NCBI GenBank assembly: GCA_963848635.1
Contig: CAWKEA010000005.1
Span: 257,526 to 321,525 of the forward strand
DNA length: 64,000 nucleotides
Direction: 5' to 3'
Source of the DNA: an uncultured bacterium
Lineage (GTDB): Bacteria; Patescibacteriota; Minisyncoccia; Phycocordibacterales; PALSA-1337
The notes beneath the pieces are model-generated. The model had not been told where the DNA came from. It saw nothing but the letters and a program-made list of their open reading frames with translations, and ran no database searches. Made by a program: the position numbers and the translations under genes. Shown here piece after piece: positions 4,789 through 52,751 of the stretch (its first letter is position 1; each line of letters begins with the position of its first letter).

Positions 4789-5874
4789 AGTACAAGACTT
4801 GAGAACGTATTCACCGCAGCGTGCTGATCTGCGATTACTAGCGATTCCGGCTTCATGAGGTCGAGTTGCAGACCTCAATCCGAACTGGCGCATCCTTTAG
4901 AGGGTTGGCTCCGCCTTTTATCGGCTTGGCGTCCTTTTGTAGATGCGATTGTAACACGTGTGTAGCCCAGGGTATCAGAGGGCCATGCTGACTTGGCGTC
5001 ATCCTCGCCTTCCTCCCACGATTCTGCTCGATCAAGTCCAATCCTAAGTCATAAAGTCTTAAGTTCGCATTCTTGATTTACTTTATGAACTTCCGATTGA
5101 ATGCAATCAAAATCGTGGGCAGTCTCGCCTGACATATATAACAGGCAACGAGGGTTGCGTTCGTTACCCCACTTAAGGGAACAATTCAAACCACGAACTG
5201 ACGACAGCCATGCAGCACCTGTCTAACTGCCTTGCGGCGACCAAAGTTTCCTCTGGTCTTCAGCTAGATTTCTAACCCTGGTAAGGTTTTTCGTTTGTCG
5301 TCGAATTGAACCACATGTTCCACCGCTTGTGCAAGTCCCCGTCTATTTCTTTGAGTTTTAACCTTGCGGTCGTACTACCCAGGCGGATCTCTTAACGCGT
5401 TAGCTACGGCTCGAGGAGGGTCGATACTCCTCAAACCAAGAGATCATCGTTTAGGGCGTGGACTACTGGGGTATCTAATCCCATTCGCTACCCACGCTTT
5501 CGTGTTTCAGCGTCAAGAATGCTCCAGTCTCCTGCCTTCGCTTTTGGTGTTCCCCATGATATCAACGCATTTCACCGCTACACCATGAGTTCCAGAGACC
5601 CCTCGCATCTTCTAGCTATGCCGTTTCCCGCGCAGGTCCCCGGTTGAGCCGAAGAATTTAACGCGAGACTAACACAGCCGCCTACACACCCTTTACGCCC
5701 AATAATTCCGGATAACGCTTGAGGCACTCGTATTACCGCTGCTGCTGGCACGAGTTTAGCAACCTCTTATTCATGAGCTCTTCAATAAACTTAGTCGCTC
5801 ATAAAAGGTTTTTACGTACCGAAGTACTTCATCAACCACGCGGCGTCGCTCCGTCAGGCTTTCGCCCATTGCGG

Positions 5875-5905
<31 letters not shown>

Positions 5906-6457
5906 ATGGACCGTGTCTCAGTTCCATCGGTGGGGGTCAGCCTCTCAGCTCCCCTAGACGTCATAGCCTTGGTAGGCCGTTACCCTACCAACTAGCTGAT
6001 ATCGAAAAGGCCGTTCCAAGGGCGAAAAAACTTTACCCTTCAGCCTTGCGGCTTCAGGGACTATCGGGAATTATCTAACCTTTCGGCTAGTTATGCCCGA
6101 CCCTTGGGGACGTACCTGATTATTACTACCTCGTCTGCCGGTGACCCTTGCGGATCCCCTAGACTTGCATGCCTTATCCACGCCGCCAGCGTTCATCCTG
6201 AGCTAGAATCAAACTCTATCAATAAATGAACGGAACAAAAGAGAAAACGCAAATTCGGCTTGTCTGCCGTGAGGCAGACCTGTGCCGACTTTCATAATCG
6301 CCAATGATCACTGTTTATTGATATCGTCCCATCCAGCTCGTAAATTATCGTTTATTATTTGGACTTGCTTTTATCTCAATCTTTTTTCAAGATTGTGTGT
6401 GAATTTCAATTTTCTAAATTTTCAAAGGGCCCAGCCCCCGTTTGGGACATGGGATGT

Positions 6458-6626: not shown

Positions 6627-7055
6627 ATGAACGAGAAGTACAGGAAAAATTTTGACGAATGGAATGGGCGTAAGAAATATATCGATCAAAACATCTTGCC
6701 GGATGATTTCTTTTTCCTGGAAGGAGAAGTCTGGTGGGCTTCGCTTGGTGTAAATGTCGGACAGGAAATGGACGGCAAGAATGCATCGTACGAAAGACCG
6801 GTCCTCATTTTAAAGAAATTCAGCGATGAACTGTTATGGGCAATCCCTTTATCGAGCACAAAAAAGACTCGTGAATATTTTTATCCGATCATATATCAAG
6901 GCAAGCCCAGAACCCTTCTTATATTGCACATGAAAACAATAAGCAGCAAAAGACTCCTGCGCCTTGTTTTTAGAATGGAAGAGAAGGAATTTGCTCTGAT
7001 AAAGATGAGAGTCAATGATATTATATCTTCTATAAATGAAATTCCCTCCGATTAA
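6627..7055 (+). CDS. PemK/MazF-family endoribonuclease toxin-like protein (orphan, N-terminal extension)
   Basis: GEVWWASLGVNVGQEMDGKNASYERPVLILKK...LWAIPLSSTKK matches the MazF/EndoA pattern (G-[DE]-V-[YW]-[FW]-A-x-L...G-x-E-x-x-G...RP-V-L-[VI] ... [AV]-I-P-[IL]-[ST]-S). There is a TATAAT box at 6614-6619. Confidence 0.55.
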   Translation: MNEKYRKNFDEWNGRKKYIDQNILPDDFFFLEGEVWWASLGVNVGQEMDGKNASYERPVLILKKFSDELLWAIPLSSTKKTREYFYPIIYQGKPRTLLILHMKTISSKRLLRLVFRMEEKEFALIKMRVNDIISSINEIPSD

Positions 7056-7903: not shown

Positions 7904-9026
7904 TTATAGCACAAATTTCAAATAATTTTCTCGATTGACGATTTCAAATGATGAACCCGGATAACTTTCCAAGAATTTTTGTGGCCTTGGTGCTTTGCCA
8001 CTCCACTTGAATTCATACGCCTTGAAAGCGCCGTCTTTTTCTTCCACCAAATCTATTTCCTTTTGCTCGTACGTTCTCCAAAAATATCGATTAGCAAATA
8101 TGTTCTGGCATGAATTTTTCTTGAGTCGCTCTATGAACATGAAATTTTCCCATAGTGCGCCGATATCATTTCTATTTTCCATGTCGCTAAATTGCGCCAA
8201 CAAAGCGTTACGTACGCCGTTATCATAAAAATAGTATTTCTTTTTTCCTCGTATCTCGTTTCTAAGGTTCCTTTTCAAGGCAGACAACGATACGATGATA
8301 AAACCTTTTTCCAAGACATCTACGTATTTTTCGATCGTCCTGACGTTGGTATTCAAATTCGTCGCAAGTTCTGTCAGCGATACTTCAGACCCTACTTGAA
8401 GTGCAAGCAATTTAACCAGATCAACGAGGGTCTTTGATTTTTTGATATTGTCGAGTGCAAGAACATCTTTGAGAAGATACGAATCCACGATTTCATTCAG
8501 CATTGTTATTTTCTTTTGATTATCTTCAGTCAAAAATACGTCCGGATAAGAACCGTACACGAGAAATTGGCCAAGTTTTTGCCGTATATCAAACTCGCTA
8601 TAGTCCTCTACCAATTCCATCTGCGCAAAAGGATAAATAATGATGGTATTTTTTCTGCCAGTTAACGGCTCTCCGATCTGATTTGACAGGTCAAAGCTCG
8701 AGGAACCGGTTACAATAACTTTGATTCCTGGAATTTGATCCACTATTATTTTCAATCCTTGCCCTACGTTGGGTATGTGTTGGGCTTCGTCTATTGCGAT
8801 AAGATCAAGGCCTGCCGCATATTGTTTTATCTTTTCGAAATCATTTGATCCTAATACTCTCTTGGACTCTTATATTTTCCCCGGAATCTAGCCTGTATTT
8901 AAGCTTTGTTTCTTGCAAAAAAGAGTTAAGAATCGTGGTCTTTCCCACCCTCCTTGGGCCGTACATAACCAGAACTTTGTTGGGCAACAATAATGGCTCT
9001 ATTGAGCTGTAAAAACGTTTAATCAT
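7904..9026 (-). pseudogene. COG1373-type AAA+ ATPase (AAA_14 + DUF4143), disrupted by a frameshift near 8845-8870
   Basis: The N-terminal piece 8841..9026 carries Walker A (LVMYGPRRVGKTT). The C-terminal piece 7904..8755 (VIVTGSSSFDL...) continues in another frame. The alternate frame across 8756-8840 reads GSNDFEKIKQYAAGLDLIAIDEAQHIPNVGQGLKIIVDQIPG, bridging the two pieces. Confidence 0.6.
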
Positions 9027-9113: not shown

Positions 9114-10889
9114 TTATATCCCCTGATTCAACAGATTCCTCGTGGCAGGACCACAACGCCGAGCGGGTGAAAGACCGTTCGCTGTTTGATACTCTTCAAC
9201 AGCGGCCTTTGTAGCAGGCCCGAAATAGCCAGTCGCAGAGCTCGTGAGGTATCCGTCCTTTATCAAACGCTGTTGGAGAGCAACTACATCTGGATCAGAC
9301 TGACCAATCTTATTCATGCCTTCATAAAGATAATTATTAAAGGTATATGAAGTAGATGAAGTATTAACTATGCCTTGAGACGGCACAGGCGTCGCTGTGG
9401 GCATGCAGACAAGGCCGGCGGGACAATTGGAGGCGACTGTGGATGAAGAAGCCCCCAACGAGGCCGATGAAAAATTGCCTGTCCAAAAGTACTGCTTTAT
9501 AGAAGAGCCAGCAGAGTTCGAGAACGAGATAATGACAGGCAATGGCATGCTTTCGGAGCCTGTCATCGTGTATACCGCCGTGTAAGGACCACTGCCGGAC
9601 CCATTGACCGATACTGTCGAATTGTTGACCGACACTGAAGGATTGATAATGCTCTGGTTCGCATTGAATCCGATCGTCAGAGAATTACTACCGACAAGGA
9701 AGCTGTTGCTCTGATTTCCCGAAGAAATGGAAAAAGAAGAAAGCGCGAGAGGAATCGAAAGCGTCGAGGAGACGTTTGAAGAAACGCTCACATACAGAAC
9801 ATTGCATTGATTGTTTGTACTGCAGACATTTATGTCCGAGCTACCGACACCGATAGCATTCAACGTCAAGATGTTTCCATTTAGGTTCGGTTTCACGACG
9901 CTCGGATTCGAATTGTTCGAGACATAATATTGCCCTGTATTGCTTCCGGAAAGCGAAACCACCTGATTCTGCCCTGGTGCCAGATTGACGTTGCTCGGAT
10001 TAAACGTAATCAATGAAGAAACAGATGTATTGGATACCGACCCTCCTGCTGGATTCGAATAAGAATTTATCGTGCCGCATTCTCCATCCGACTGGCATAC
10101 TGTTATAGTAGAGCCGCCAGCAGAAAGTCCGGTAACGATCACGTTGTCTCCGCTGACTGTTACCGATACTGAAGATGGATTCGTATTTTGCGAGATAGAA
10201 AATGGGCCAAGGCCAGATATTGTTATGGTTTGACTCTGACCAACCGTCAAGTTTGCGACACTTGAACTTAAAGAAAAAGATGAAACCGGCGACGACAAGA
10301 CACTTATGTTTATGGGCTGACAGTCATTGTTCGCATCACAGACAGTTATTGTGACTGTACCTAAGTTATCATTAGCCGTTATTACAACCGTATTCCCAAA
10401 TATGGTCCCGATAGCTACGGCTGGATTCGTATCGCCTGAAATATGTAATGCTCCAACAGCGTTGTTTGCGGTCACACTTCCGCTCTGCCCCGCACCCATG
10501 TTCAATACAATTTGGCTTAAAGACAGACTGCCTGATGAGCCCGAATTCACTGGCCAATACGAAGAAGAAGATTGCGCCCCGTCAACAACCGCATATACTG
10601 GAGCGCTTCCAGGAATACCGTACGTTCCGGCATTGATCGTACTAGATAGATAGCCGCTTGAATTCGTCAGTCCCAGGCTGACGTACCCTGTCGAAGACGT
10701 AGCAGAAGTATAATAAAGCGTTACTGCGGCTTCTGGGTCAGCGCCATACACAGTGACTTGCACGGAATTGCCAGCAATAGCGGACAAAGTGAGAGAAGGA
10801 GTCGATGCGGCAGATACCTTTAAAAAACCAACAAACAAAAACAATACGATCATCAAAGAAGACAGGATTATATGTTTACTTTTTCTCAT
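9114..10889 (-). CDS. secreted S/T/N-rich surface protein with Ig-like repeats and C-terminal peptidoglycan-binding domain
   Basis: N-terminal signal/TM MRKSKHIILSSLMIVLFLFVGFLKVSAAST, long low-complexity S/T/N/G-rich beta-repeat region, and a C-terminal PG_binding_1-like domain (...SDPDVVALQQRLIKDGYLTSSATGYFGPATKAAVEEYQ...). Confidence 0.75.
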   Translation of the reverse strand: MRKSKHIILSSLMIVLFLFVGFLKVSAASTPSLTLSAIAGNSVQVTVYGADPEAAVTLYYTSATSSTGYVSLGLTNSSGYLSSTINAGTYGIPGSAPVYAVVDGAQSSSSYWPVNSGSSGSLSLSQIVLNMGAGQSGSVTANNAVGALHISGDTNPAVAIGTIFGNTVVITANDNLGTVTITVCDANNDCQPINISVLSSPVSSFSLSSSVANLTVGQSQTITISGLGPFSISQNTNPSSVSVTVSGDNVIVTGLSAGGSTITVCQSDGECGTINSYSNPAGGSVSNTSVSSLITFNPSNVNLAPGQNQVVSLSGSNTGQYYVSNNSNPSVVKPNLNGNILTLNAIGVGSSDINVCSTNNQCNVLYVSVSSNVSSTLSIPLALSSFSISSGNQSNSFLVGSNSLTIGFNANQSIINPSVSVNNSTVSVNGSGSGPYTAVYTMTGSESMPLPVIISFSNSAGSSIKQYFWTGNFSSASLGASSSTVASNCPAGLVCMPTATPVPSQGIVNTSSTSYTFNNYLYEGMNKIGQSDPDVVALQQRLIKDGYLTSSATGYFGPATKAAVEEYQTANGLSPARRCGPATRNLLNQGI

Positions 10890-12019: not shown

Positions 12020-13957
12020 TTAAAGGCTGGTGAGTGAAACTGATGGGCTCTGAACCTGGCTAGGCAATGTGTACAGAGACTGTGAAGTCGAAGTAGCACC
12101 CGATGCTGTTGCCACTGAGCTGTAATAGATACCTGTGAGAGCAGTGATTGCACCGCTGTCAGGAGCATTACCAGAGTTGTTCTCCAAGACATTGATCGTG
12201 AAGGTTCTGGCCTGATTGGACGGAACGTAGAACGAACCTGTTGCGGCTGTTCCAAGACCATTGTTGGTGTCGCCTGTGACAGTTGTCGCAGATGTGATAC
12301 CTGTTGCCTTTGACGATGAAGCTGCATTGCCTGTCAAATCAAAGATATACGTTGCGGCGAGCTTAGGCGTAGCCGAGATGTAGATCGGCGATGTCCCAGC
12401 TTGCACTGTGAAGGTGAACGGCCATTGAACTGCTACGTTACCATTACCATTCGGTACGGTTGTAGGAGTATAGCTAGGAACAGAAGGAGCGACTCCCGGA
12501 ACAACCGAGAAGGCTGCTGTGGTCGAGAATGTCGTGACTGCGCTGACTATCGTGCCGGCGTTGTTGACGGTCGGCGTGTTGTAGTTAGCGTCGACACCTA
12601 CGAAGTTAGAGGTAGATGCTGTGTTGAGCGAAGTGGTTGCAGTAACTCCTGTAACACCCTGGTTGACGTTAGCAACGATCTTCAAAGGAACAGTGACTCC
12701 GAGCGGAAGCGGTATGCTTACGCTGCTGTTGAATACAACTGTGTTTCCTGAGAGAGTTCCGTAGTAAGTCATACCATTAGCTTGGAGCTGAATGGTATTG
12801 AAGACAGAGGCTGGCGTATAGCTACCACCAGAGACTCCGACGTTCAAAGTCAAACCTTGCAGTGTTGCTGCATTGTTCTGAGCTTGGATGTCATAGATAG
12901 CCAACGGTACATTGTTCGTGACTGAACCTGATTGTGTCTGGATGATTTGCGTCTGAGGCGAAGAACCATCGATAGAAACAATAAGGTTTGCAGTCTGATT
13001 ACCGCTGTAAAGCACACTAGCGTAAGGCGAAGTCGTGTTCGGGTAAGGAAGGTTCAAGAGAGGAAGATTCTCTGTATCGACGACTCCTGTTCCATCTACT
13101 GAACGGACCGAAGCAGCGATGACGTCGAGATAGGCACCAGTGTTCTGGCTTATACCAGAAAGTGCTGTACCGGACAAGACGACATTGACTGTCTGACCCT
13201 TAGGAACGACGAAGTTGAGACCACTGATCGTCAAACGATAATCCTCGCTCGCTGTGAGCTCTGTAAAGCTTGAAGCGTTAAGAGGGATAGAAGGTACGAG
13301 AACCTGTCCTGTTGTCTGGTTGACGAGAGAGAAAGTTCCGAAGTACAACCATGGGCGGACATTGAAGTCGGCTGTTATTGTATTGACCTGCATATCAGAA
13401 GGACCAGCTTGGAGCTTGAAGCCTGCGATGTTCACAGTCTGACCTGTGTTGAATGTAGCACCGTTAGCAACTGATCCGCTGTTTGATATCGTCAATGTAC
13501 CTGATATTCCTGGAGTCGTTATACCTGTTGGAGCTGCGACAGTTCCTGTCGTCGTTACTGTCGTACCGACGATCGGTGTGCATGTGAAGCCTGCTGGGCA
13601 AGCCATCGAGACTGAGCCTGTGCCTGTGCCTGTGCCTGTAACAGCTGTGCCACCCTTATTCAAGGAAGCGACTGTCAAAGGACCGACGAAGCCAGTGTTA
13701 GGAATGCTGTTTGCAGCTTGGTAAGCCTTGACTGCAGATTGTGTCTGCGTGCCAAAGTAACCAGGTTGAGCGGCACCGGAAGAGATTGACGGGATGCTGT
13801 AACCATTAGCGATGAGGAAATTCTGGAGAGCCGTAACATCGGCGCCAGTAGATCCAACGCTCAAATAATTTGAGAACGTGTAGCTCGCAGCTGAAGCGAC
13901 GAGGGCAAAGCCCAAGACGATTGCAGCAGCTGAGGCTACGATTGATTTTGCTTTCAT
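12020..13957 (-). CDS. large secreted T/S/G-rich surface protein with N-terminal peptidoglycan-binding domain
   Basis: Signal peptide MKAKSIVASAAAIVLGFALVASAAS, then GADVTALQNFLIANGYSIPSISSGAAQPGYFGTQTQSAVKAYQ (PG-binding), followed by ~550 aa of T/S/G/N-rich repeats. Confidence 0.75.
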   Translation of the reverse strand: MKAKSIVASAAAIVLGFALVASAASYTFSNYLSVGSTGADVTALQNFLIANGYSIPSISSGAAQPGYFGTQTQSAVKAYQAANSIPNTGFVGPLTVASLNKGGTAVTGTGTGTGSVSMACPAGFTCTPIVGTTVTTTGTVAAPTGITTPGISGTLTISNSGSVANGATFNTGQTVNIAGFKLQAGPSDMQVNTITADFNVRPWLYFGTFSLVNQTTGQVLVPSIPLNASSFTELTASEDYRLTISGLNFVVPKGQTVNVVLSGTALSGISQNTGAYLDVIAASVRSVDGTGVVDTENLPLLNLPYPNTTSPYASVLYSGNQTANLIVSIDGSSPQTQIIQTQSGSVTNNVPLAIYDIQAQNNAATLQGLTLNVGVSGGSYTPASVFNTIQLQANGMTYYGTLSGNTVVFNSSVSIPLPLGVTVPLKIVANVNQGVTGVTATTSLNTASTSNFVGVDANYNTPTVNNAGTIVSAVTTFSTTAAFSVVPGVAPSVPSYTPTTVPNGNGNVAVQWPFTFTVQAGTSPIYISATPKLAATYIFDLTGNAASSSKATGITSATTVTGDTNNGLGTAATGSFYVPSNQARTFTINVLENNSGNAPDSGAITALTGIYYSSVATASGATSTSQSLYTLPSQVQSPSVSLTSL

Positions 13958-14458: not shown

Positions 14459-14589
14459 AAGGCTATTTTGGGTAGCAGATATTCACAGGGCTATATTACA
14501 CCTATATACAAGTAGAGTCAAGCATAGTCTAAAAGTCGAAGTCCCGAGTGGAACGTCTGAAAAACAACTGTCTACGCATCCACTTTTGA

Positions 14590-15518: not shown

Positions 15519-17798
15519 ATGGCAAAAAAGAAAAACGGCAAGGACAAAAAAGAGAACGGATCATCGTTCGTCAACGAGCTCAAGACAGAAACACTGCAGG
15601 CAGTACTATCGATCATATTTCTAGTGGCAGGCATACTGACTGCTCTGGCCAAATTCGACAAAGCAGGCTGGGTCGGAAACGTCTTTTACCACTATGCTCA
15701 TACCTTGTTCGGTGTGGGCTATTTTCTCCTTCCGCTCATATGCATCATCCTCGCTACAGCGTTCTTGCGGGGCATACGGCAAAGATTCACCTTCTGGAAA
15801 CTGATCGGCGGATTGCTATTCTTGCTCTCCGGCCTCGGCCTGGTTGACCTTGTCTTCAAGGACGAGGGCGGCATCATCGGCCACTATGTGTCGAGCCCTC
15901 TCATATCGCTCGTCGACGTATACGCCTCCGCGGCGATCCTCATCGCGTTAGTCGCCATCTCTCTTCTCATCACATTCGAGACAGGCGTCACATTTGGAAC
16001 CTTAGCATTTTGGAAGCAAAAGGACGGCGATGAAAAGAAGAAGATGAAAAAAGAGCCAGCCTCGGATGACTCGGACGTAGACGAGATGGTGGAGGAAGCC
16101 GAAAAAAAGCTCGATGGCGACAAGCAAAAAGACGACGACAAAGAGGAAAGAGCAACGCCGATTCCGCCACAGCCAAAAAAAGCGGAAAAAAAGAAGGCGG
16201 ACGATGAAGAGGATTTTGCCATGGCCGCAAACACGAGGAGCATGAAGCCGTTCACTCCCCCGCCGCTCTCGCTCCTTGAAAAAGACAGCGGCCGGCCGGA
16301 GACCGGCGACATCAAGGCGAATGCGAATATCATAAAGAGGACGTTGCAGAATTTCGGCATAAGCGTGGAGATGGACGAGATATCGATCGGACCTTCGGTG
16401 ACGCGATATGCTTTGAAACCTGCTGAAGGCGTCAAGCTGTCGCGCATAACCGCGCTCAGCAACGACTTGTCTCTGTCCTTGGCGGCACATCCGATACGCA
16501 TCGAGGCGCCTATACCAGGAAAGAGCCTCGTCGGCATAGAGATACCGAATACTTCAAAGACGACTGTCGGCCTTGCCACGATTCTCGGTTCCGAAGAATT
16601 CCAGCGGTCTGAAAAGCCCCTGCTCATCTCTCTCGGAAAATCGATCACGGGAGCTTCTCATTTCACCAACCTGGCCAAAGCGCCGCATATGCTCGTAGCC
16701 GGCACCACCGGCTCGGGCAAATCAGTCATGATACACGCTGTCATCACTTCCCTGCTCTACCGCAATTCGCCCGAGGATCTGAAGTTCATCATGATAGACC
16801 CAAAACGCGTCGAATTGACGCTCTATAACAAAATTCCCCATCTTTTGACGCCGGTCATAACAGATGCGAAAAAAGCTATTTTGGCCTTGAAATGGGCTGG
16901 CAAAGAGATGAGCCGAAGATACGATATACTCGAAAAATCCTCGGCCCGAGACATCGAGTCATATCATAAAAACGTCCTCGACCCGGCGATCGAAAAAGCC
17001 ATAGCCAAAGTCAAAAGCCAAAAGGCAAAAGGCACAAGCGAAGATGGGAACGGGGATGAAGGGAAATTCCCCGAAACGATGCCGTATATCGTCATCGTGA
17101 TCGATGAATTGGCTGATATCATGCAGGCGTATCCGAGAGAGCTGGAAAGCGCCATAGTCCGTCTGGCCCAGATGAGCCGCGCCGTGGGCATCCATCTGGT
17201 CCTATCGACCCAAAGGCCCTCGGTCAACGTCATAACAGGCCTCATAAAAGCGAATATCCCGACGCGTGTGGCGTTACAGGTCGCTTCGCAGATAGATTCG
17301 CGCACTATCCTCGACCAGCCTGGAGCGGAAAAACTGCTCGGTGCCGGCGATATGCTCTATCTCGGCGCGGATATGTCAAAACCAGTGCGCCTACAATCGG
17401 CGTATATATCAGAAAGCGAAGTGAAGAAAGTGACCAAGTATCTCGCTGATACATACAAAGACGAGATCATGGGCGAAATAAACCTCTCAGGGCCGCAGAG
17501 CGAGCCGGGTCAGGACGCCGTTTTCTCGGCCAATCTCGATGATGAGACGCTCGAAGACGACGATATGTATGAGGACGCACGCCTCGCCGTAGTTTCCGCC
17601 GGCAAAGCTTCGACATCGTACCTCCAGCGCAAGCTCGGCGTCGGCTATTCGCGCGCGGCAAAATTGATGGACATGCTCGAGGAACGCGGCGTCATCGGAG
17701 CGGCGAACGGATCAAAACCGAGAGAGGTGATGGGTGCGGCTGTGGCGAGCGAAGATTCCTTGATCGACACAACAGAACCGAACGATGAGGCAATTTAA
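15519..17798 (+). CDS. ftsK: DNA translocase FtsK/SpoIIIE
   Basis: N-terminal TM helices, Walker A GTTGSGKSVMIHAVITSL, the characteristic IVIDELADIM and LVLSTQRPSVNVITGLIKANIPTRVALQVAS segments, and a C-terminal gamma domain (YLQRKLGVGYSRAAKLMDMLEERGVIG). Confidence 0.92.
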   Translation: MAKKKNGKDKKENGSSFVNELKTETLQAVLSIIFLVAGILTALAKFDKAGWVGNVFYHYAHTLFGVGYFLLPLICIILATAFLRGIRQRFTFWKLIGGLLFLLSGLGLVDLVFKDEGGIIGHYVSSPLISLVDVYASAAILIALVAISLLITFETGVTFGTLAFWKQKDGDEKKKMKKEPASDDSDVDEMVEEAEKKLDGDKQKDDDKEERATPIPPQPKKAEKKKADDEEDFAMAANTRSMKPFTPPPLSLLEKDSGRPETGDIKANANIIKRTLQNFGISVEMDEISIGPSVTRYALKPAEGVKLSRITALSNDLSLSLAAHPIRIEAPIPGKSLVGIEIPNTSKTTVGLATILGSEEFQRSEKPLLISLGKSITGASHFTNLAKAPHMLVAGTTGSGKSVMIHAVITSLLYRNSPEDLKFIMIDPKRVELTLYNKIPHLLTPVITDAKKAILALKWAGKEMSRRYDILEKSSARDIESYHKNVLDPAIEKAIAKVKSQKAKGTSEDGNGDEGKFPETMPYIVIVIDELADIMQAYPRELESAIVRLAQMSRAVGIHLVLSTQRPSVNVITGLIKANIPTRVALQVASQIDSRTILDQPGAEKLLGAGDMLYLGADMSKPVRLQSAYISESEVKKVTKYLADTYKDEIMGEINLSGPQSEPGQDAVFSANLDDETLEDDDMYEDARLAVVSAGKASTSYLQRKLGVGYSRAAKLMDMLEERGVIGAANGSKPREVMGAAVASEDSLIDTTEPNDEAI

Positions 17799-18383: not shown

Positions 18384-18902
18384 ATGTCTACTAAAATCAC
18401 AAAAACAAAGAAAAAAGAGGCCTCGATCGATGACGGATTTTCTACAAAAGCCGATGTCAAAGAGATCGTTAGAAATGCCATCAACGAACTGACAATGATT
18501 ATCGGGGATTCTTTTGGAAAGATGGAGAAATCGATGAATGCTCGATTCGATGAAGCTGATGAGAGATTTGACGAAATGGATTCGAAGTTCAAACTGATTG
18601 ACGAGAGGTTCGATCGGATCGATGAGAAGTTCGTTCTGATTGATGAGAAGTTCGTTCTGATTGATGAGAGATTCGAGCGGATCGATGAGAGATTCGAGCG
18701 GATCGATGAGAAGTTCGTTCTGATTGACGAGAGATTCGACGAGATAGATAGACGGTTCGAAGAAGTCGACTTGAAATTCGACGGTGTAACAAATCGAATC
18801 CAGGGGCTTTGGAATGCTTTTGATTCTCACACCCTCGACTGTGTCAAACGCGACGAGCACGATAGATTAGAAAAGAGAGTGCGGGTATTGGAAACAGCTT
18901 AA
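18384..18902 (+). CDS. coiled-coil protein built from 11 tandem heptads (DE[KR]FxxI), N-terminus resembling RecA N-terminus
   Basis: Protein is ...DERFDEM DSKFKLI DERFDRI DEKFVLI DEKFVLI DERFERI DERFERI DEKFVLI DERFDEI DRRFEEV DLKFDGV... The DNA at 18558-18788 is 11 consecutive 21-bp units, several identical (gatgagaagttcgttctgatt). The N-terminus MSTKITKTKKKEASIDDGF parallels the RecA N-terminus [18 protein letters not shown]. Confidence 0.6.
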   Translation: MSTKITKTKKKEASIDDGFSTKADVKEIVRNAINELTMIIGDSFGKMEKSMNARFDEADERFDEMDSKFKLIDERFDRIDEKFVLIDEKFVLIDERFERIDERFERIDEKFVLIDERFDEIDRRFEEVDLKFDGVTNRIQGLWNAFDSHTLDCVKRDEHDRLEKRVRVLETA

Positions 18903-24300: not shown

Positions 24301-25824
24301 TTATTTCCTCATGAAAAGCGGCGCGTCCGGCATCTTGTTTTCCTTTACCAAAGAGATTATTTTTTCTGCAGTCTGCGGCAAAAATGGCTTCAGCATGGTG
24401 CCGATCATATCCAGACGCGCCAACAATTCCTGTATATCCTTTTTAGCTTCGGCCTTGTCGACTTTTATCTTTTTGAACGGCTCGCGCTCTTGGATGATCT
24501 TGTCGGTGGCCGCGATAAAGTCCCAGATCGCCTTTGAAGACCTTTGTAAGTCGTATGAGTCGAGGCCTGCCATCTGCTCTTTGTATGTCTTGTCCATCTC
24601 CTCCGAAGCGGCAATATCCTTGGCTATCTTTTCATCAAAGACGATGCCGTTCGACGTCGCCATTTTCATGACGCGCGAGACGAGGTTGCCAAGACCGTTA
24701 GCCAAACCTGCATTGTAGGCGTCTTTGAACTTTTCTGGCGTGAATGGGCTGTCTTCGAAAGGATGGAGCTCACGCAACGCAAAATAGCGCAAAGCATCGG
24801 TACCGTATTCTTTGACCAATTCGAATGGATCGACGGTATTGCCGAGGGATTTCGACATTTTGATGCCGCCATCGCCCGTGACGAAGCCGTCGATGACGAT
24901 GGTCTTTGAGGGAGGCAGGCCAGCCGCCATGAGCATTGACTGCCACATCGCGGATTGCTGGCGGAGATTGTCTTTGCCGCAATATTGGACGACGCCGCCG
25001 GAATCGATCCACCATTTTTTGAAGGAATTGTCATTTACCGCATTCCCGTCTTCACTTTTGAACTTTGAGTTTTGAGTTTTGAGTTTGTTATCCGGCCATC
25101 CAATGCACGAGACATAATTGACGAGAGCGTCAAACCACACATACATGACCTGATCGGGATCGCCGGGAACATCTATCCCCCACGACATCTTTGACTTGAG
25201 CCGCGATATGCTGAAATCCTCGAGGCCGCGACCGACAAAGGCTTTTATCTCATTGAAACGAAAATCAGGGATAACCAAAGAAGGATTTGACGTGTATAAG
25301 TCGAGGAGTCTCTGCTGGAACGCGCTGAATTTGAAAAAATAGTTCTCTTCTTTTATCATCTCGATCTCCTGTAGCGGATGGAGCGGGCAACGGCCGTCGA
25401 CGAGCTCTGAATCTGTCTTTTCGAGCTCACAGCCGACGCAATATTTTATCGAGTAGTTTTTCTTGTATATAAAGCCGTTCTTTTGGACGATGCGCCAAAA
25501 TTCCTGGGCGGCAAAGACGTGATATGCATCAGTCGTCCGAACGAAATTCGCGTCTGGAAGGACACCAAGCACAGACAGCAATTCCCGAAATTTCTTTGAC
25601 TTTTCATCGACATACGCCTGTGGCGTCAGATTCTGCGCCGCCGCAGTCTTGTCTATCTTTGCCCCATGCTCGTCGGTGCCGGTATTCAGAAAGACCTCAC
25701 AGCCAGCGAGCTTTTTAGCACGCGCGACGGCGTCGGCCCGGATGAGCTCGACGGCAAAGCCGACATGGGGATCGGCGTTCACGTACGGCAAGGTGGTTGT
25801 TATGTAGAATGGAGGTTTTTTCAT
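24301..25824 (-). CDS. metG: methionyl-tRNA synthetase
   Basis: Class I aaRS. TLPYVNADPHVGFA (HIGH-region variant), CVGCELEKT zinc knuckle, KMSKSLGN, and anticodon-binding helical C-terminus. Confidence 0.9.
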   Translation of the reverse strand: MKKPPFYITTTLPYVNADPHVGFAVELIRADAVARAKKLAGCEVFLNTGTDEHGAKIDKTAAAQNLTPQAYVDEKSKKFRELLSVLGVLPDANFVRTTDAYHVFAAQEFWRIVQKNGFIYKKNYSIKYCVGCELEKTDSELVDGRCPLHPLQEIEMIKEENYFFKFSAFQQRLLDLYTSNPSLVIPDFRFNEIKAFVGRGLEDFSISRLKSKMSWGIDVPGDPDQVMYVWFDALVNYVSCIGWPDNKLKTQNSKFKSEDGNAVNDNSFKKWWIDSGGVVQYCGKDNLRQQSAMWQSMLMAAGLPPSKTIVIDGFVTGDGGIKMSKSLGNTVDPFELVKEYGTDALRYFALRELHPFEDSPFTPEKFKDAYNAGLANGLGNLVSRVMKMATSNGIVFDEKIAKDIAASEEMDKTYKEQMAGLDSYDLQRSSKAIWDFIAATDKIIQEREPFKKIKVDKAEAKKDIQELLARLDMIGTMLKPFLPQTAEKIISLVKENKMPDAPLFMRK

Positions 25825-28583: not shown

Positions 28584-28616
28584 ATAATTTCTAATTGACC
28601 TAATTTCTAATTGACC
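28584..28616. repeat. left 28-bp inverted repeat (tandem TAATTTCTAATTGACC units) flanking the four-helix-bundle gene
   Basis: aatttctaattgacctaatttctaattgacc matches the reverse complement of 28969-28998 at 27 of 28 positions. Confidence 0.75.
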
Positions 28617-28968: not shown

Positions 28969-28998
28969 AGTAATTAGAAATTAGGTCAATTAGAAATT
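28969..28998. repeat. right inverted repeat; overlaps the glyQS stop codon (encodes ...KISN*)
   Basis: taattagaaattaggtcaattagaaatt. The GlyRS terminal codons AAA ATT TCT AAT TGA are the reverse complement of 28986-29000. Confidence 0.75.
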
Positions 28999-35197: not shown

Positions 35198-38100
35198 TTA
35201 TAAGACGAGGTCGAACTTGATGCCAGCTGTGGCATCAACTACTGCACCATTTACAACAATCTCAATATTCTTCAACAATACCGCCTTCACGAGCTCTTCC
35301 TTGTTCCTTTCGATGAAAGCCTCCCCCGCCTTGTCCGCGGCAAAGACCTTGAGGATCGGCCGATCCTGTATCGTGAGCTTTTGCTCCTTGCGCCTATCCT
35401 GGATGGCGCGCATGAGGTCGCGCAGTTCCCCTTCTTCTTTCAATTCAGGCGTTATGTTCAGATCAAGCTCAACTTCTGTGCTGATACTTCCATCAACAAC
35501 GACTTCCTTCACATTGACTTCTTCGTTGATCAAATCAAGCAAGTTTTTGTCTTCAATTTTGAACTTTGCATTTTGCACTTTCAATTTTGAGAGCGGCTGT
35601 CTGACGTTTATCTTTGCTTTTGAGCGAGCTTCGAGGCCAAGGGATGCTATGTCGCGGACAAGCTTCATATTCTCAATCAGATCTTTGTCGATTGCACTGA
35701 GAGCGGGCCAACTCTCGAGATGCACGCTTTCACGGCCGCCTTTCAGTCTCATGTAGACGTCTTCGGCAAGGAACGGCATGAACGGCGCTAGTAATTTTGA
35801 TACTTCAAGGAAAACGAGGCGCGTCGTTGCGAGAGCGGCCGACTTATCAGCTTCATCTTCCCCCTTGAACCTGTCTCGCGAGCGACGCAAATACCATGTA
35901 GAAAGGTCATCGATAAAATCTGCAAACGGCCTCGTCGCCTTGTCGAGCTCATATTTCTCCATTCCTTCAGTCACCTCCTTGTTCAATTCATTCAGGCGAG
36001 AGACGATCCATCGGTCAAGGATGTTTTTGCTTGCATCGCTTCGCGACGGAATGGTCTCGCTCACACGAAATTCTTCTGTTGAAGAATTTCTCCGTTCCGC
36101 GCCGTCGCGCTCCACGAGGTTCGCTCGACCCATTCCGGTCGCTTCGCCTGCATACAATTCATAGAACGTCACGACATTCAAAAGCCTGCCGATGTGCTTC
36201 TTGACCACTTCATCGACGCCCTTTTCTGAAAAACAGAATTCCTGGGCACGAACAGCAGGAGAAGACAAGAGATAGTAGCGCAAGGCATCGGCTCCATATT
36301 TCCGGACGACAGGCATGAGATCAGGGAAATTATTCTTTGATTTGGACATCTTTTGCCCGTCTTCAGCCAGAATGATGCCATTGACAACGACATTTTTATA
36401 TGGCGCTCGGCCAAAAAGCGCCGTACCGAGCACGATCATGCTATAGAACCATCCGCGCGTCTGATCGACACCTTCAGCAATGAAATCCGCAGGATATCCC
36501 CTACTTTTCCCCAACTTATCCCCAGTTATCTTTGCGAGGAATCCCCTCGCTGGATCGAATTCTTTTGTATCAAAAGGATAATGCGCCTCGCCGAACGGCA
36601 TCGAGCCTGATTCGAACCAGCAATCGAAGACTTCCTCGACGCGCTTTAGTTTTTCGCCGCCCGGCAGATGCAATTCGATATCATCGATGTATGGCCTGTG
36701 CAAATCGATCTCGAAATCGTCATTGTGCGGCAGTGGCACAAAATCGAGCTTTTCAGGAGCGGCGTTATCGAAATAATGGAGCTTGCGGTTTCTGAGATTG
36801 AGGGTCCCTTTGTCATCGAGCCCGAGCGAAACAGATGCCAGCATAAAAGCCGGCGCATCGTGAGTGACGATAAGGATGTTCTTGCCTACATACCTCCTCT
36901 CCATGTCATAGATAAAACTGCCGACCCGCTTTCGGATATCGGCGTAGTTCTCCCCCTTTGGAAGGCGAATAGAAAAGCGCTTCTCATGCGGGAAAGCTTC
37001 CATGAACTCATCGAATGGCTTGCCGTCATAGATGCCGGAATCCAATTCGTGAAGACGATCGTCGACGATGATATTTTTCTTCGGAAAATCCAGTCCAGCC
37101 GCAAGGATATCTGCAGTCTCTTTTGTGCGGACAAAAGGCGAGACAAAGATGATATCGATCTTCTTGTCGGCAAAGAATGCCGCCGCAGCCTTCACTTGCG
37201 CCTTTCCTTTCTCTGTCAGATGCTTTGGGTCGGTTGCTTTCGCGCTCATGACGCCGAGCGTGTTATTCTCCGCTTCGCCATGACGCATGATGTAGTAGGA
37301 GTTTTTGGCTTGCGAATGCTTCCTGAGGTCGTTGATCGAACCGAAGCAATGGATAGAGCCTGACTTTTCGCCGCGCCAGACCGGGATCGGAGCGCCCCAA
37401 AAACGCGAGCGGGAGATGGCCCAGTCGCGAGCTCCCGCGAGCCAGTTGCCGAAACGTCCTTCGCCGACTTCTGGCGGAGTCCAACTGACTTTGCCGTTCG
37501 CGGCAACGAGCTTGTCCTTGAAATCGCTGACGCGCACGAACCATGACGACGCGGCATAATTGAGGAGCGGCGTGTCGCAACGCCAACAATGCGGATACGA
37601 GTGCGTCATATTCTCCTTTGCAAAGAGAAGGCCTTTTTCTTGGAGCCACTGGATGACTTTTATATCCGTGCGCAAATGCGCGTCCTTGTCTTCCGGCGTA
37701 TCCTTTGGCTTTACTTTCAAACCTGAAAAATCAACGACTTCTTTTTTGAACGTGCCGTCGATATTGACGTGCTGAACGAACGGCAGATTTTCCTTTTGTC
37801 CGAGCGCATAGTCATCAGCGCCGAACGCAGGCGCGATATGGACGATGCCGGTGCCGTCGGTCGTCGTGACAAAATCGGCGGCATATACTTTCCAGCCGTT
37901 TTCGCGATTCTTGAGACTTGTGTCTTTTGAATAATAGTCAAAGAGGGGCACGTAGGATTTGCCGACGAGGTCGGAACCCTTCATCTCTGCGACGATTTCA
38001 TATGCTTCTTTTTTGAAAGTTGCCTCGAGCCTTTCTTTTGCACAAATATAAAAAACTTGATTCTCTCCGCCAACGACAACAGGAACACTTTTTCTACCCC

Positions 38101-39010
38101 CTTCGGTGGAGCGAAAAAGTTTCCTCTCGTCTTGTGTCGCGGCTGACGAAGCGTCCTGTGCCGGTGCATCATTTGAGCTTTCGATTTTTTGTTCAGGCCC
38201 TCCGACTTTCACTTTCACATAATCAATATCCTTGCCTACAGCCAATGCGACATTGCCGGGCAATGTCCACGGCGTCGTCGTCCATGCCAAGAGATACGTA
38301 CCTTCATCGTCCCCGTCTGCATCTTTGAGTTTTGAGTTTTGAGTTTTGAGCTCGAACTTCACATACACTGAAATGTCCTTTATGTCTTTATACCCCTGCG
38401 CGACCTCAAAATTCGATAGCGTCGTCTCGCAGTGCGGACAGATCTGCATCGGCTTGAAGCCCTCATAGACGAGCCCTTTTTCATGCAATTGCTTGAAAGC
38501 CCACCAGACGCTCTCGGTGTAGCTCGAGTTCATGGTCTCGTAATCGTTCTCCATGTCCGCCCAGCGGCCGAGTCGCGGGATGATCTCCTTCCAATCGTTG
38601 ACGTATCGGTGCACCGCTCTTCGAGCGGCAGAATTGAAATTTTTGATGCCAAAATCGATGATGTCTTTCTTGCTCTTGAGCCCGAGTTCCTTTTCAATCA
38701 GATTCTCGACCGGCAAGCCGTGACAATCCCAACCCCAGCGACGGCGCACGCTGTAGCCTTGCATCGTCTTGTAGCGAGGAACTGCGTCTTTTATCGAAGT
38801 CGGCAAAACGTGGCCAAAATGCGGCAATCCCGTAGCGAATGGCGGCCCGTCATAAAAGACGAACTTGCCGCGCGGAGCTTCCCTATCGACGCTTTTCTTA
38901 AAAATATCGTTCTCCTTCCAATATTTTAAAATGCGCTCTTCGCGCTCTTGTGCTGGCGTTTTTGCGACCACCTTGTCGCCAGTTTGGCCTGCATTCTGAT
39001 TTGTTGTCAT
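35198..39010 (-). CDS. ileS: isoleucyl-tRNA synthetase with a ~200-aa histidine-phosphatase (PGAM-like) domain inserted in place of the zinc-knuckle segment
   Basis: FYDGPPFATGLPHFGHVL (HIGH), GWDCHGLPVE, KMSKSKNN, and a C-terminal anticodon-binding domain. Residues ~565-765 read YYIMRHGEAENN...LTEKGKAQV...IIFVSPFVRTKETADIL...DDRLHELDSG...ILIVTHDA, matching histidine phosphatase branch-1 motifs. They lie between WRGEKSGSIHCFGSINDLRKHS and DLHRPYIDD...EVFDCWFESGSMP. Confidence 0.9.
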   Translation of the reverse strand: MTTNQNAGQTGDKVVAKTPAQEREERILKYWKENDIFKKSVDREAPRGKFVFYDGPPFATGLPHFGHVLPTSIKDAVPRYKTMQGYSVRRRWGWDCHGLPVENLIEKELGLKSKKDIIDFGIKNFNSAARRAVHRYVNDWKEIIPRLGRWADMENDYETMNSSYTESVWWAFKQLHEKGLVYEGFKPMQICPHCETTLSNFEVAQGYKDIKDISVYVKFELKTQNSKLKDADGDDEGTYLLAWTTTPWTLPGNVALAVGKDIDYVKVKVGGPEQKIESSNDAPAQDASSAATQDERKLFRSTEGGRKSVPVVVGGENQVFYICAKERLEATFKKEAYEIVAEMKGSDLVGKSYVPLFDYYSKDTSLKNRENGWKVYAADFVTTTDGTGIVHIAPAFGADDYALGQKENLPFVQHVNIDGTFKKEVVDFSGLKVKPKDTPEDKDAHLRTDIKVIQWLQEKGLLFAKENMTHSYPHCWRCDTPLLNYAASSWFVRVSDFKDKLVAANGKVSWTPPEVGEGRFGNWLAGARDWAISRSRFWGAPIPVWRGEKSGSIHCFGSINDLRKHSQAKNSYYIMRHGEAENNTLGVMSAKATDPKHLTEKGKAQVKAAAAFFADKKIDIIFVSPFVRTKETADILAAGLDFPKKNIIVDDRLHELDSGIYDGKPFDEFMEAFPHEKRFSIRLPKGENYADIRKRVGSFIYDMERRYVGKNILIVTHDAPAFMLASVSLGLDDKGTLNLRNRKLHYFDNAAPEKLDFVPLPHNDDFEIDLHRPYIDDIELHLPGGEKLKRVEEVFDCWFESGSMPFGEAHYPFDTKEFDPARGFLAKITGDKLGKSRGYPADFIAEGVDQTRGWFYSMIVLGTALFGRAPYKNVVVNGIILAEDGQKMSKSKNNFPDLMPVVRKYGADALRYYLLSSPAVRAQEFCFSEKGVDEVVKKHIGRLLNVVTFYELYAGEATGMGRANLVERDGAERRNSSTEEFRVSETIPSRSDASKNILDRWIVSRLNELNKEVTEGMEKYELDKATRPFADFIDDLSTWYLRRSRDRFKGEDEADKSAALATTRLVFLEVSKLLAPFMPFLAEDVYMRLKGGRESVHLESWPALSAIDKDLIENMKLVRDIASLGLEARSKAKINVRQPLSKLKVQNAKFKIEDKNLLDLINEEVNVKEVVVDGSISTEVELDLNITPELKEEGELRDLMRAIQDRRKEQKLTIQDRPILKVFAADKAGEAFIERNKEELVKAVLLKNIEIVVNGAVVDATAGIKFDLVL

Positions 39011-51393: not shown

Positions 51394-52377
51394 TCATCTC
51401 GCCGACCACCTCGCGAAGATGCCGCACGGCAGTAGCCTGGCGGTCGCGCTTTGTCCTAGTTTCGCCGGACCTTTTTGGGTCTCTTCTATCGTCAACTCGC
51501 CTGCCTCGATCGTACCGCCGAACTTATCCTGCAAAATTTTCAAATTATTCGCATAAGCGATTGGTGAATATCCTGCCGCGTATCCGTTTATCAAAAAGAA
51601 AAGCGGCTTGGCTGAGAGAAGCTTCACGCAATCATTGAAAAGCGGCACGAAATCTTCTTCTATCTTCCAAACCTGTCCTTTGTCGCCACGGCCAAATGAC
51701 GGCGGATCCATGATGATGGCATCGTATCGGCGCTCACGGCGCAATTCCCTTTTCACGAAATCGCGCGCATCGTCGAGCATCCAGCGGATCGGTTTTTCTG
51801 CGAGACCGGAAAGCTCCGCGTTCTCCTTTGCGCGAGTGATGGCGACTTTCGACCCATCAATGTGGACAACAGACGCGCCCTCAGCTGTACACGCGAGCGA
51901 TGCGCCGCCGGTGTAGCCAAAAAGATTAAGCACCTCTAGCTTTGAAGCTTGACCCCCAATTTTGGGCTTTGAGTTTTGAGTTTTGAGTTTTTCCTTCATC
52001 CATTCCCAATTCGCTTTTTGTTCAGGAAAAAGGCCGACATGCTTGAATGGCGTCGGCTCGACAAAGAATTTGAGACCGGCAAAACTGATAGGCCATTTTT
52101 CAGGCGTGCCTGCCTTCAACTTCCATCTGCCTTTCGAGCTTGCCTTGCCCTTTACATCTTCACCATCGCTTTCACTGGCGACACGGCTAAAAGTCCCGTC
52201 TGCCTTTGCCCATTCATCGGGCGATAGCTTCTTTTGCCACAAAGCCTGCGGATCGGGGCGCGACAAGACATATTTACCGAACCTCTCCAGCTTTTCCCCG
52301 TCGCCGGAATCGAGCAGTTCGTAGTCTTTTTCGGCGGACGTCGCAAGAATTTCGTTTTGCTTCCAAGATTGATTCAT
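51394..52377 (-). CDS. class I SAM-dependent rRNA methyltransferase (RlmI/RlmK-like)
   Basis: VLNLFGYTGGASLA (motif I), IIMDPPSFG (motif IV DPP). N-terminal PUA-like region. Confidence 0.75.
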   Translation of the reverse strand: MNQSWKQNEILATSAEKDYELLDSGDGEKLERFGKYVLSRPDPQALWQKKLSPDEWAKADGTFSRVASESDGEDVKGKASSKGRWKLKAGTPEKWPISFAGLKFFVEPTPFKHVGLFPEQKANWEWMKEKLKTQNSKPKIGGQASKLEVLNLFGYTGGASLACTAEGASVVHIDGSKVAITRAKENAELSGLAEKPIRWMLDDARDFVKRELRRERRYDAIIMDPPSFGRGDKGQVWKIEEDFVPLFNDCVKLLSAKPLFFLINGYAAGYSPIAYANNLKILQDKFGGTIEAGELTIEETQKGPAKLGQSATARLLPCGIFARWSAR

Positions 52378-52494
52378 GGAGCGATGATAGCAAACCTTGG
52401 CTCTATTAACAAATAAATCATCTCGATCACATGCGCACCTTTTTTCTCGACTAGCGAGCTTGCCACGTGGGTGGTTGTATACAATTTATATGCA

Positions 52495-52522
52495 TGTTTA
52501 CAATGTATATACATTGTAAACA
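52495..52522. promoter_or_regulatory. 28-bp perfect palindrome TGTTTACAATGTATA/TACATTGTAAACA (candidate operator), preceded by the palindrome TTGTATACAA (52475-52484)
   Basis: Read directly from sequence. The reverse complement is identical over 28 bp. Confidence 0.45.
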
Positions 52523-52751
52523 CAGACAAAAATAAGGGACACCCCCCCTACAGAGAATGATTAGTCTTGAATGATTTCAATCGCTCGATTGATTATTCTT
52601 TCGCCGATTTTCCCCCAATCAAAGTATTTTTTGTATTCTTTTGGATCGATGAGCTTTATCTCTGTCACGCTCCCAGCGGGATCGGAGACGAACGGCCCGA
52701 AAGGCTCGACGATGCAAGCGTACCGAATATGACTAAACCGCCGTCACAGTT

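Follow-up and report, generated by a model that had tools for sequence, protein, structure and literature searches.

A heptanucleotide array read in frame in a methyltransferase gene of an uncultured member of the Patescibacteria, and its sister copies in essential genes

How can a repeat with a unit of seven nucleotides lie within a gene that is read in triplets, and stay there? One expects essential genes to be purged of microsatellites whose unit is not a triplet. In the stretch of DNA considered here a 7-nt repeat instead persists in frame, and at one site it has done so for a long time. The stretch, called the window below, is 64 kb of the genome of an uncultured bacterium of the Patescibacteriota (contig CAWKEA010000005.1 of assembly GCA_963848635.1, positions 257,526 to 321,525), and all counts of copies refer to it. 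The site in question is a heptanucleotide array at 51960-51994 on the minus strand, within the gene of a 327-amino-acid methyltransferase, which we studied through its sequence and translation, Tandem Repeats Finder (TRF), shuffled sequences and orthologues. In our view the array has the look of "selfish" repeat DNA that the gene tolerates, and not of a functional domain.

The array and its copies in the window

A (TTTTGAG)n repeat had been reported at this site in an earlier note made from the sequence alone, and the repeat is real. The string quoted there, caattttgggctttgagttttgagttttgagtttttcc, is found at 51957-51994, and TRF detects 4.6 copies of a period-7 unit, TTTTGAG, at 51960-51991, above the three copies that we took as the minimum for tandem 7-nt units. 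On the plus strand the units are TTTTGGG (51960-51966), CTTTGAG (51967-51973), TTTTGAG (51974-51980), TTTTGAG (51981-51987) and TTTTTCC (51988-51994). In the sense of the gene, on the minus strand, they read GGAAAAA CTCAAAA CTCAAAA CTCAAAG CCCAAAA, that is, (CTCAAAR)3 flanked by a degenerate unit on either side, and the perfect core amounts to 24 nt. The array lies in frame within the minus-strand open reading frame (ORF) at 51394-52377, whose translation includes ..WMKEKLKTQNSKPKIGGQ.., with (E)KLKTQNSKPK as the part encoded by the array.

Such arrays are far more frequent in the window than chance would have it. The pattern TTTTGAGTTTTGAG, with at most one mismatch, has seven matches at three loci (starting at 25063, 38323 and 51967), where 0.04 are expected from dinucleotide-preserving shuffles. 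Given the codon usage of the window, the probability that LKTQNS be written with exactly these codons is 0.0015 per locus, and therefore the identity of the arrays between loci is one of DNA and not the by-product of a common peptide. The unit itself has properties that bear on its survival in genes. As can be read off the sequence, CTCAAAA is free of stop codons in every frame and its complement TTTTGAG includes TGA, while three units make 21 nt and always encode a circular permutation of LKTQNSK, whichever the frame. A gene can therefore keep such an array only if it is oriented in this way and changes in length by three units at a time.

The earlier note had also taken the methyltransferase array to be an in-frame copy of a repeat that other genes here contain as well, which is borne out. 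The 21-mer CTTTGAGTTTTGAGTTTTGAG is common to the methyltransferase, methionyl-tRNA synthetase (MetRS, at 25063) and isoleucyl-tRNA synthetase (IleRS, at 38323), three unrelated genes, and the three perfect copies are read in one codon frame, with CTC as the leucine codon. From the sequence and an alignment to homologues, the MetRS array occupies 25056-25090 (minus strand) in the ORF at 24301-25824; its sense strand reads AAA CTCAAAA CTCAAAA CTCAAAG TTCAAAA GTGAAGAC and encodes ..NKLKTQNSKFKSED.. in the protein. This copy is private to the genome and falls into an insertion hot spot, GWPD-xxx-FKKWW, where most homologues have three residues and where the window's lineage and its relatives have unrelated inserts of 20-90 residues. 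The array at IleRS site 1 (38323-38350, minus strand, in the ORF at 35198-39010), defined by sequence and orthologue alignment, is (CTCAAAA)3 CTCAAAG and encodes ..FELKTQNSKLKDAD.., so that FE[LKTQNSK]LKD stands against ..VKFELKDEPGTF.. in most orthologues (the FELKDE type). It is an exact 21-nt insertion beside a Leu-Lys pair and is likewise private to this genome; in L226, a syntenic sister genome, the same site is occupied by another heptamer array, (CAAGTGA)2.7. Judged by these alignments, the MetRS and IleRS site-1 copies are recent.

Two further arrays are degenerate. An older one in the C-terminal region of IleRS (35555-35590, minus strand) encodes ..LSKLKVQNAKFKIED.., has AAAGTTCAAAAKTGAAGAC in common with the MetRS copy and recurs in degenerate form in close orthologues (KLKIQSTKFKIED, KFKVQSSKFKVED). 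The other, (NCAAAAG)4 at 17004-17038 on the plus strand, lies in the FtsK ORF at 15519-17798 and encodes ..AKVKSQKAKGTSEDGN..; a relative (L128) carries a perfect (GAAAGTC)5 at this site, where the FtsK proteins are 82% identical and the arrays differ in sequence. An alignment of the five loci yields a consensus of about 45 nt, AAACTCAAAACTCAAAACTCAAAGnTCAAAAnTGAAGACGGGAAC, and shows that some copies share non-repeat flanks, AAAGYYCAAAAKTG(AAGAC), beyond the perfect repeat. With three perfect and two degenerate arrays in 64 kb, the repeat forms a dispersed family. Its five members all lie inside ORFs and in frame, in several unrelated genes (the methyltransferase, MetRS, IleRS at two sites, and FtsK), and none is intergenic, the predominant location of the STRR (short tandemly repeated repetitive), GGGNATC and TAACTGA repeats.

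The IleRS gene holds two other insertions. The first, at about 38080-38200 on the minus strand (residues ~270-315, "GGPEQKIESSNDAPAQDASSAATQDERKLFRSTEGGRK"), resembles a MetRS insert of a relative (P0129, "NNAPARDASSAETQDE"), a likeness between peptides that suggests another family of in-frame elements. The second is a His_Phos_1 histidine-phosphatase domain that interrupts the enzyme midway (residues 573-737 of the product of 35198-39010, minus strand). Since all of the best 120 homologues carry it, this insertion is clade-wide.

The host protein and the age of its array

The gene at 51394-52377 (minus strand) encodes a class I S-adenosylmethionine (SAM)-dependent methyltransferase of the 2IGT type within the RlmI superfamily, as assigned by PF10672 and by the match to 2IGT. 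Pfam places PF10672 (Methyltrans_SAM) at residues 90-232 (E 3e-14). The best solved relative is the 332-residue SAM-dependent methyltransferase 2IGT, matched in sequence over its full length (E 1e-64), and RlmI itself (3c0k) is matched in the catalytic core only (E 7e-9). Comparison of an AlphaFold model (mean predicted local distance difference test score, pLDDT, 85) by Foldseek gave a TM-score of 0.82 to 2IGT and of about 0.6 to RlmI-type structures. The description of the protein as "RlmI-like" in the earlier note is therefore right at the level of the superfamily, through PF10672 and the core of 3c0k, and imprecise beyond it, as the closest structure is 2IGT and not RlmI proper. RlmI combines an N-terminal PUA domain and an EEHEE domain with a C-terminal class I SAM domain of the PF10672 type, in about 396 residues altogether. 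The host protein has this last domain; it is 327 residues long, and the Pfam scan matched no PUA family in it, which leaves the "PUA-like" domain of the same description unsupported. Methylation of C1962 of 23S rRNA is attributed to the protein by automatic JGI names only.

Where in the protein does the array fall? Its placement "between" two domains had been roughly correct, in that it stands between an N-terminal beta domain and the core, and was imprecise in that it lies inside the PF10672 envelope, at the junction of a helix end and a loop. AlphaFold models residues 131-137 (LKTQNSK), which the repeat encodes, as the end of a helix of residues 118-135; a loop (136-147) follows and leads to strand beta1 (148-152, VLNLF), with GYTGG directly after it. 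The pLDDT is about 76-77 at the array segment and 96 and 89 in the flanking blocks, and compared with 2IGT the protein has nine additional residues, precisely where the repeat lies. When 40 homologues are aligned, the segment from ..NWEW.. to ..VLNLF.. ranges from about 11 to more than 80 residues, with K[LI]KxQ[NS]xKxK at the point of the array in many relatives. As modelled, the array occupies a permissive junction of helix end and loop that leads into the Rossmann core. The helix end and loop, the lowered pLDDT, the nine-residue insertion and the variable loop length together give the picture of a surface-exposed, permissive insertion site such as those of the Rickettsia palindromic elements (RPE), to which we return below.

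The best homologues of the host protein belong to the Patescibacteria, under the source labels Paceibacteria, Pacebacteria or Parcubacteria, and the gene order VKOR-methyltransferase-FolD-SIMPL is kept in every relative sampled at the locus, with SecE, NusG and L11 downstream in the longer loci. For five orthologues of 60-81% amino acid identity we compared the DNA itself. All five have four to five units of the form NNCAAAR in an identical 7-nt register: CTCAAAA ATCAAAA TTCAAAA CTCAAAA in P0004, CTTAAAA CTCAAAG CGCAAAG CTCAAAG in P0002, CTCAAGA CTCAAAG CACAAAG TTCAAAA in P0021, ATCAAAA CCCAAAA CTCAAAA ATCAAAA in P0023 and ATAAAAA TTCAAAA TTCAAAA TCTAAAA in P0025. Against the window, 22-25 of 30 nt of the array are identical; the fraction is 0.58-0.78 for the gene outside the array and 0.42-0.62 at the third positions of conserved codons there. 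Because the orthologues keep these 7-nt-periodic units in register, the methyltransferase copy is old, predating the divergence of proteins that are now 60-81% identical, and it has since been stable in length and has decayed slowly by point mutation. Near-identical strains point the same way. The identical array is present in three further assemblies, two of which come from strains that differ slightly: L001 (where the whole gene is identical), L129 (with 14 nt differences in the gene) and L227. Even strains with 1.4% nucleotide divergence in the gene have it unaltered. The locus is therefore not hypervariable.

The stretch that separates the VKOR gene from the methyltransferase start contains, at 52469-52548, an imperfect palindrome with 40-nt arms, which may be a terminator or a regulatory hairpin.

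Heptamers in relatives, in other phyla and in known systems

The preference for a period of seven extends beyond the window. In a census of exact arrays in the window and the loci of five relatives (149 kb in all), 13 arrays of period 7 were counted and none in shuffled sequences. Period 6 gave six arrays against 1.8 in the shuffles, period 9 gave one, and periods 8 and 10-12 gave none. The units are specific to the genome: GAAAGTC and GGGACTC in L128, GGAACTC and GGTACTA in L127, CAAGTGA in L226. The relatives also carry longer elements. Some 58 nt are common to FtsK and MetRS of L128, in frame and with internal variants in identical order (..SKVE[NS]QEK[KR]DSGLGTFDSGL..), and L127 has an element with palindromic arms (VPSSEYLVPSQENRNSVLGTRNSEL, about 57 nt) in frame in MetRS (10732-10806 of its locus), twice in UvrC (12626-12680 and 13424-13480) and in Ddl (14521-14553), all within 4 kb. 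These elements of about 57-58 nt thus exist as nearly identical copies in two to three essential genes within 21 kb. Copies are thus more alike within one genome than they are at the identical site in different genomes, and this is the strongest hint that, besides slippage, copying between loci takes place.

Other features of the relatives deserve mention. In L128, inverted heptamer arrays (AAGTCNA.. at 8504-8536 and GACTTTC.. at 8890-8916) flank an Avd-like gene at 8580-8891 (PF05635, 23S_rRNA_IVP). L226 has a pair of the diversity-generating retroelement (DGR) type, bAvd and a reverse transcriptase (RVT_1), at 1354-2733, between NusG and L11, where the window has no such pair. Peptides resembling repetitive extragenic palindromic (REP) sequences ("VIPAKAGI...FRRNDK", "..RRVSEEGGE..") occur in frame in MetRS, IleRS or the methyltransferase of different relatives (P0009, P0127, P0247, P0248, P0250) and, from their sequence, look like translated palindromic repeat elements.

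Outside this clade the unit is widespread. An exact 20-mer of (CTCAAAA)n was found in at least 120 contigs from many diverse bacterial phyla, with long CTCAAAA arrays in cyanobacterial contigs among the matches listed. In other phyla the exact array is in frame in Pfam-verified YebC, TatD, TopA, LigA, GluRS, a histidine kinase, RibH, ThrC and GlyS, and in ribosomal protein L4 it lies just past the Pfam domain; the loci in other phyla with an exact array of at least 2.9 units of CTCAAAA are L017, L025, L039, L043, L053, L059, L060, L077, L094 and L228. It might be supposed from this that (CTCAAAA)n is a universally special motif, an idea that we rejected: in viral contigs, two stop-free control heptamers of equal composition turn up about as often as the unit (33, 46 and 17 contigs), and CTCAAAA is therefore one of many tolerated heptamers rather than a signal used everywhere. 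That it occurs three times within 64 kb is peculiar to this genome. A large family of identical elements was also rejected, as the 24-mer that includes the shared flank occurs in only two contigs of the JGI metagenome collection, one with the same gene and the other with GlyS.

Several known systems invite comparison. The long heptanucleotide simple sequence repeats (SSRs) of prokaryotes share with the window tandem 7-nt units, dispersed arrays, genome-specific units and an excess of period 7. They are mainly intergenic, and non-triplet units are under-represented in ORFs, according to Mrazek et al. (2007) as summarised in PMC4679880 and PMC4692102, whereas the copies in the window are all in frame and one of them, that of the methyltransferase, is conserved at an orthologous site across genera. 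The STRR of cyanobacteria and the GGGNATC and TAACTGA repeats of Xanthomonas, Nostoc and Beggiatoaceae are heptamer direct repeats of 2-26 copies with lineage-specific units (PMC4692102; PMC4679880). For them, as for the arrays of the window, the way in which the units spread is not established, and one unit of a relative, CGGGACT, is a single base away from GGGGACT, a form of the Nostoc GGGGA(C/T)T repeat (PMC4692102). These repeats are mostly located outside ORFs, on either side of them, and a regulatory role or the formation of G-quadruplexes has been suggested for them (PMC4692102; PMC4679880), while the arrays of the window are coding, short (three to five units) and without G-tracts on the sense strand. 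Closest in their setting are the RPE (Ogata et al., 2000, reviewed in PMC10969869). Like the window copies, they are dispersed in a reduced genome and inserted in frame into housekeeping genes that are unrelated to one another, and their location in surface loops makes them compatible with the protein fold. By the same account RPE are palindromes of about 100-150 bp. The window copies, by contrast, are 21-45 nt long, non-palindromic and built of heptamers, and no inverted repeat or hairpin was found at any of the window arrays; the palindromic in-frame elements of 57-58 nt are an RPE-like feature of the relatives. In the literature library that we searched, there was no description of in-frame heptamer elements in Patescibacteria or the Candidate Phyla Radiation (CPR).

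Some features of the window stand apart from the arrays. Directly upstream of recA, an ORF of 172 residues (18384-18902, plus strand) without a Pfam match holds eight tandem 21-nt units at 18536-18766, a 7-residue repeat of roughly IDERFDR. A perfect 27-nt inverted repeat (28586-28612 and 28972-28998), with arms 359 nt apart that each consist of a 16-nt direct repeat, fills the spacer between the genes of an M16 peptidase and a class II aminoacyl-tRNA synthetase (aaRS). A full-length 16S rRNA gene is found at 4739-6224 (minus strand), with no 23S rRNA in the 64-kb window, and adjoining it is an ORF for a MazF/PemK-like toxin (6627-7055, plus strand).

Origin of the repeat and what it means

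On balance we consider it probable that the methyltransferase array is a fixed, in-frame coding heptanucleotide microsatellite, one of a small dispersed family that arose by slippage or ectopic copying and is tolerated in a permissive loop. Among the long SSRs of prokaryotes, those with heptanucleotide units form the most abundant class, an excess for which slippage of the polymerase has been proposed as an explanation (Mrazek, 2007, as summarised in PMC4679880 and PMC4692102). In such a scheme, two processes, alone or together, would create and disperse the arrays: slippage of the polymerase on units of 7 nt, and ectopic copying, through gene conversion or template switching, from one locus to another where a Leu-Lys seed, CTC-AAA/G (CTCAAAR), is available. 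Selection would act as a filter only, passing the stop-free orientation, steps of 21 nt, a polar, lysine-rich peptide and surface loops of variable length, and these are the reasons for which the array could be tolerated. The outcome for the protein would be a short, lysine-rich spacer, flexible or helical, and most likely the repeat has no function of its own beyond this. A single copy is likely to be ordinary in its effect. What is unusual is the behaviour of the family, whose members are in frame, lie in essential genes and are homogenised in a genome-specific manner.

Several observations weigh against this explanation. The rest of the gene is no better conserved than the methyltransferase array, and the array keeps its register and unit number over a deep divergence. 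This hints at constraint, since a passive repeat in a linker of hypervariable length is expected to erode or vanish. Furthermore, to gain three units at once and in frame, starting from a single seed, is beyond simple slippage, and steps of 7 or 14 nt on the way there would be lethal where the gene is essential. CTCAAAG is the last unit of all three perfect copies, and two of them have common downstream flanks, which would point to copying from one template. Finally, the size and distribution of the family are judged from 64 kb of genome.

Taken further, the same observations lead to a broader reading that we regard as possible, if unlikely: that Patescibacteria of the Paceibacteria type host an undescribed class of very small in-frame elements of 21-60 nt, built of heptamers, which sit in permissive loops, are homogenised per genome and are actively copied. 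If true, loops of essential genes (aaRSs, FtsK, UvrC, Ddl, the rRNA methyltransferase) would be colonised by active copy-and-paste or templated repair, possibly driven by retroelements or recombination, rather than by passive slippage. The methyltransferase array would then rank among the oldest copies still present, and it may have served as template for the younger ones in MetRS and IleRS.

Could it be the peptide rather than the DNA that is kept? A selected motif, K-L-K-x-Q-N-S-K-x-K (often followed by S-E-D-G), might aid nucleic-acid enzymes, for instance as an electrostatic tether to RNA or DNA comparable to the appendages rich in lysine that eukaryotic aaRSs carry. The window's hosts do all act on nucleic acids (the rRNA-type methyltransferase, MetRS, IleRS and FtsK), the lysine positions are kept in six orthologues of the methyltransferase, the array is conserved no less than the gene, and related peptides such as QNSK[FV]KSED recur across genes and genomes. 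However, the improbable sharing of codons at three loci (P = 0.0015 each) together with the strict 7-nt register speaks for copying at the level of DNA. The same array is found in RibH and ThrC of other phyla, which have no nucleic-acid substrate, and it is missing in many homologues as well as in the solved structure 2IGT. The bias in hosts is itself expected by chance, since a reduced genome is rich in information-processing genes. We therefore judge selection for the motif to be quite improbable.

An RPE-like mobile mini-element, actively inserted in frame by a dedicated transposase, integrase or reverse transcriptase encoded elsewhere, seems to us similarly doubtful. In its favour are the 57-58-nt in-frame elements of L128 (FtsK, MetRS) and L127 (MetRS, UvrC twice, Ddl, with palindromic arms), the likeness of elements within a genome and their difference at one site between genomes, the flanks that window copies share outside the repeat, and the DGR-type pair of bAvd and reverse transcriptase in the syntenic relative L226. 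Against this, the window copies lack terminal inverted repeats or a hairpin, and Pfam scans of some 45 window ORFs of at least 140 residues returned no transposase or reverse transcriptase; recA and recO are present in the window. The flank-bearing 24-mer is confined to the two metagenome contigs described above, and the position and length of the methyltransferase copy are unchanged since a deep divergence. Adenine mutagenesis of the DGR type was considered and rejected, for the orthologous arrays vary at the first one or two positions of the unit and not at the A's. In MetRS, TTCAAAA stands on both sides of a 32-nt segment, which could be read as a 7-bp target-site duplication left by insertion and excision of a transposon; this we think unlikely.

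Alternatively, (CUCAAAA)n or (TTTTGAG)n could be a cis-acting signal, bound by a protein of the cold-shock or S1 type or used in DNA uptake or recombination. In orthologues both the 7-nt register and the codons TCA, CAA and AAA persist, even though third positions have diverged elsewhere, and the heptamer direct repeats of Beggiatoaceae have been proposed as binding sites of cold-shock (CSP), S1 or Csr proteins (PMC4679880). A signal would hardly be expected to differ among close genomes, as the units do here (CTCAAAA, GAAAGTC/GGGACTC, GGAACTC/GGTACTA, CAAGTGA). The copies in the window are all within ORFs, at permissive loops, with none intergenic; their density is low (three to five per 64 kb); and the RNA around the methyltransferase array has no significant structure (fold z = 0.36), nor does any Rfam family match at the array. 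Such a signal is very unlikely. A contingency locus, in which high-rate changes in copy number would switch the gene on and off by frameshift, has the classical architecture of phase variation on its side, a non-triplet SSR within a coding region (PMC4692102), and is nonetheless largely refuted, to the point of being negligible, for in contrast to the phase-variable loci of pathogens the array is of one length in L001, L129 and L227, has the same unit number in orthologues, counts only three to four units and sits, with its sister copies, in housekeeping or essential hosts (MetRS, IleRS, FtsK, a conserved methyltransferase) rather than in dispensable ones.

What does a tolerated, in-frame repeat family of this kind mean for the Patescibacteria? 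Taken with the genome-specific mini-elements that relatives carry in frame, it suggests that part of the many unexplained insertions in their proteins may stem from repeat DNA and not from functional innovation, which is relevant to the annotation of CPR proteins and to alignments and phylogenies made from aaRSs and ribosome-related genes. It also bears on why prokaryotes favour heptamer repeats and on how heptamers spread. Should the copying prove active, a new kind of selfish element would be involved, one that edits essential proteins without killing them.

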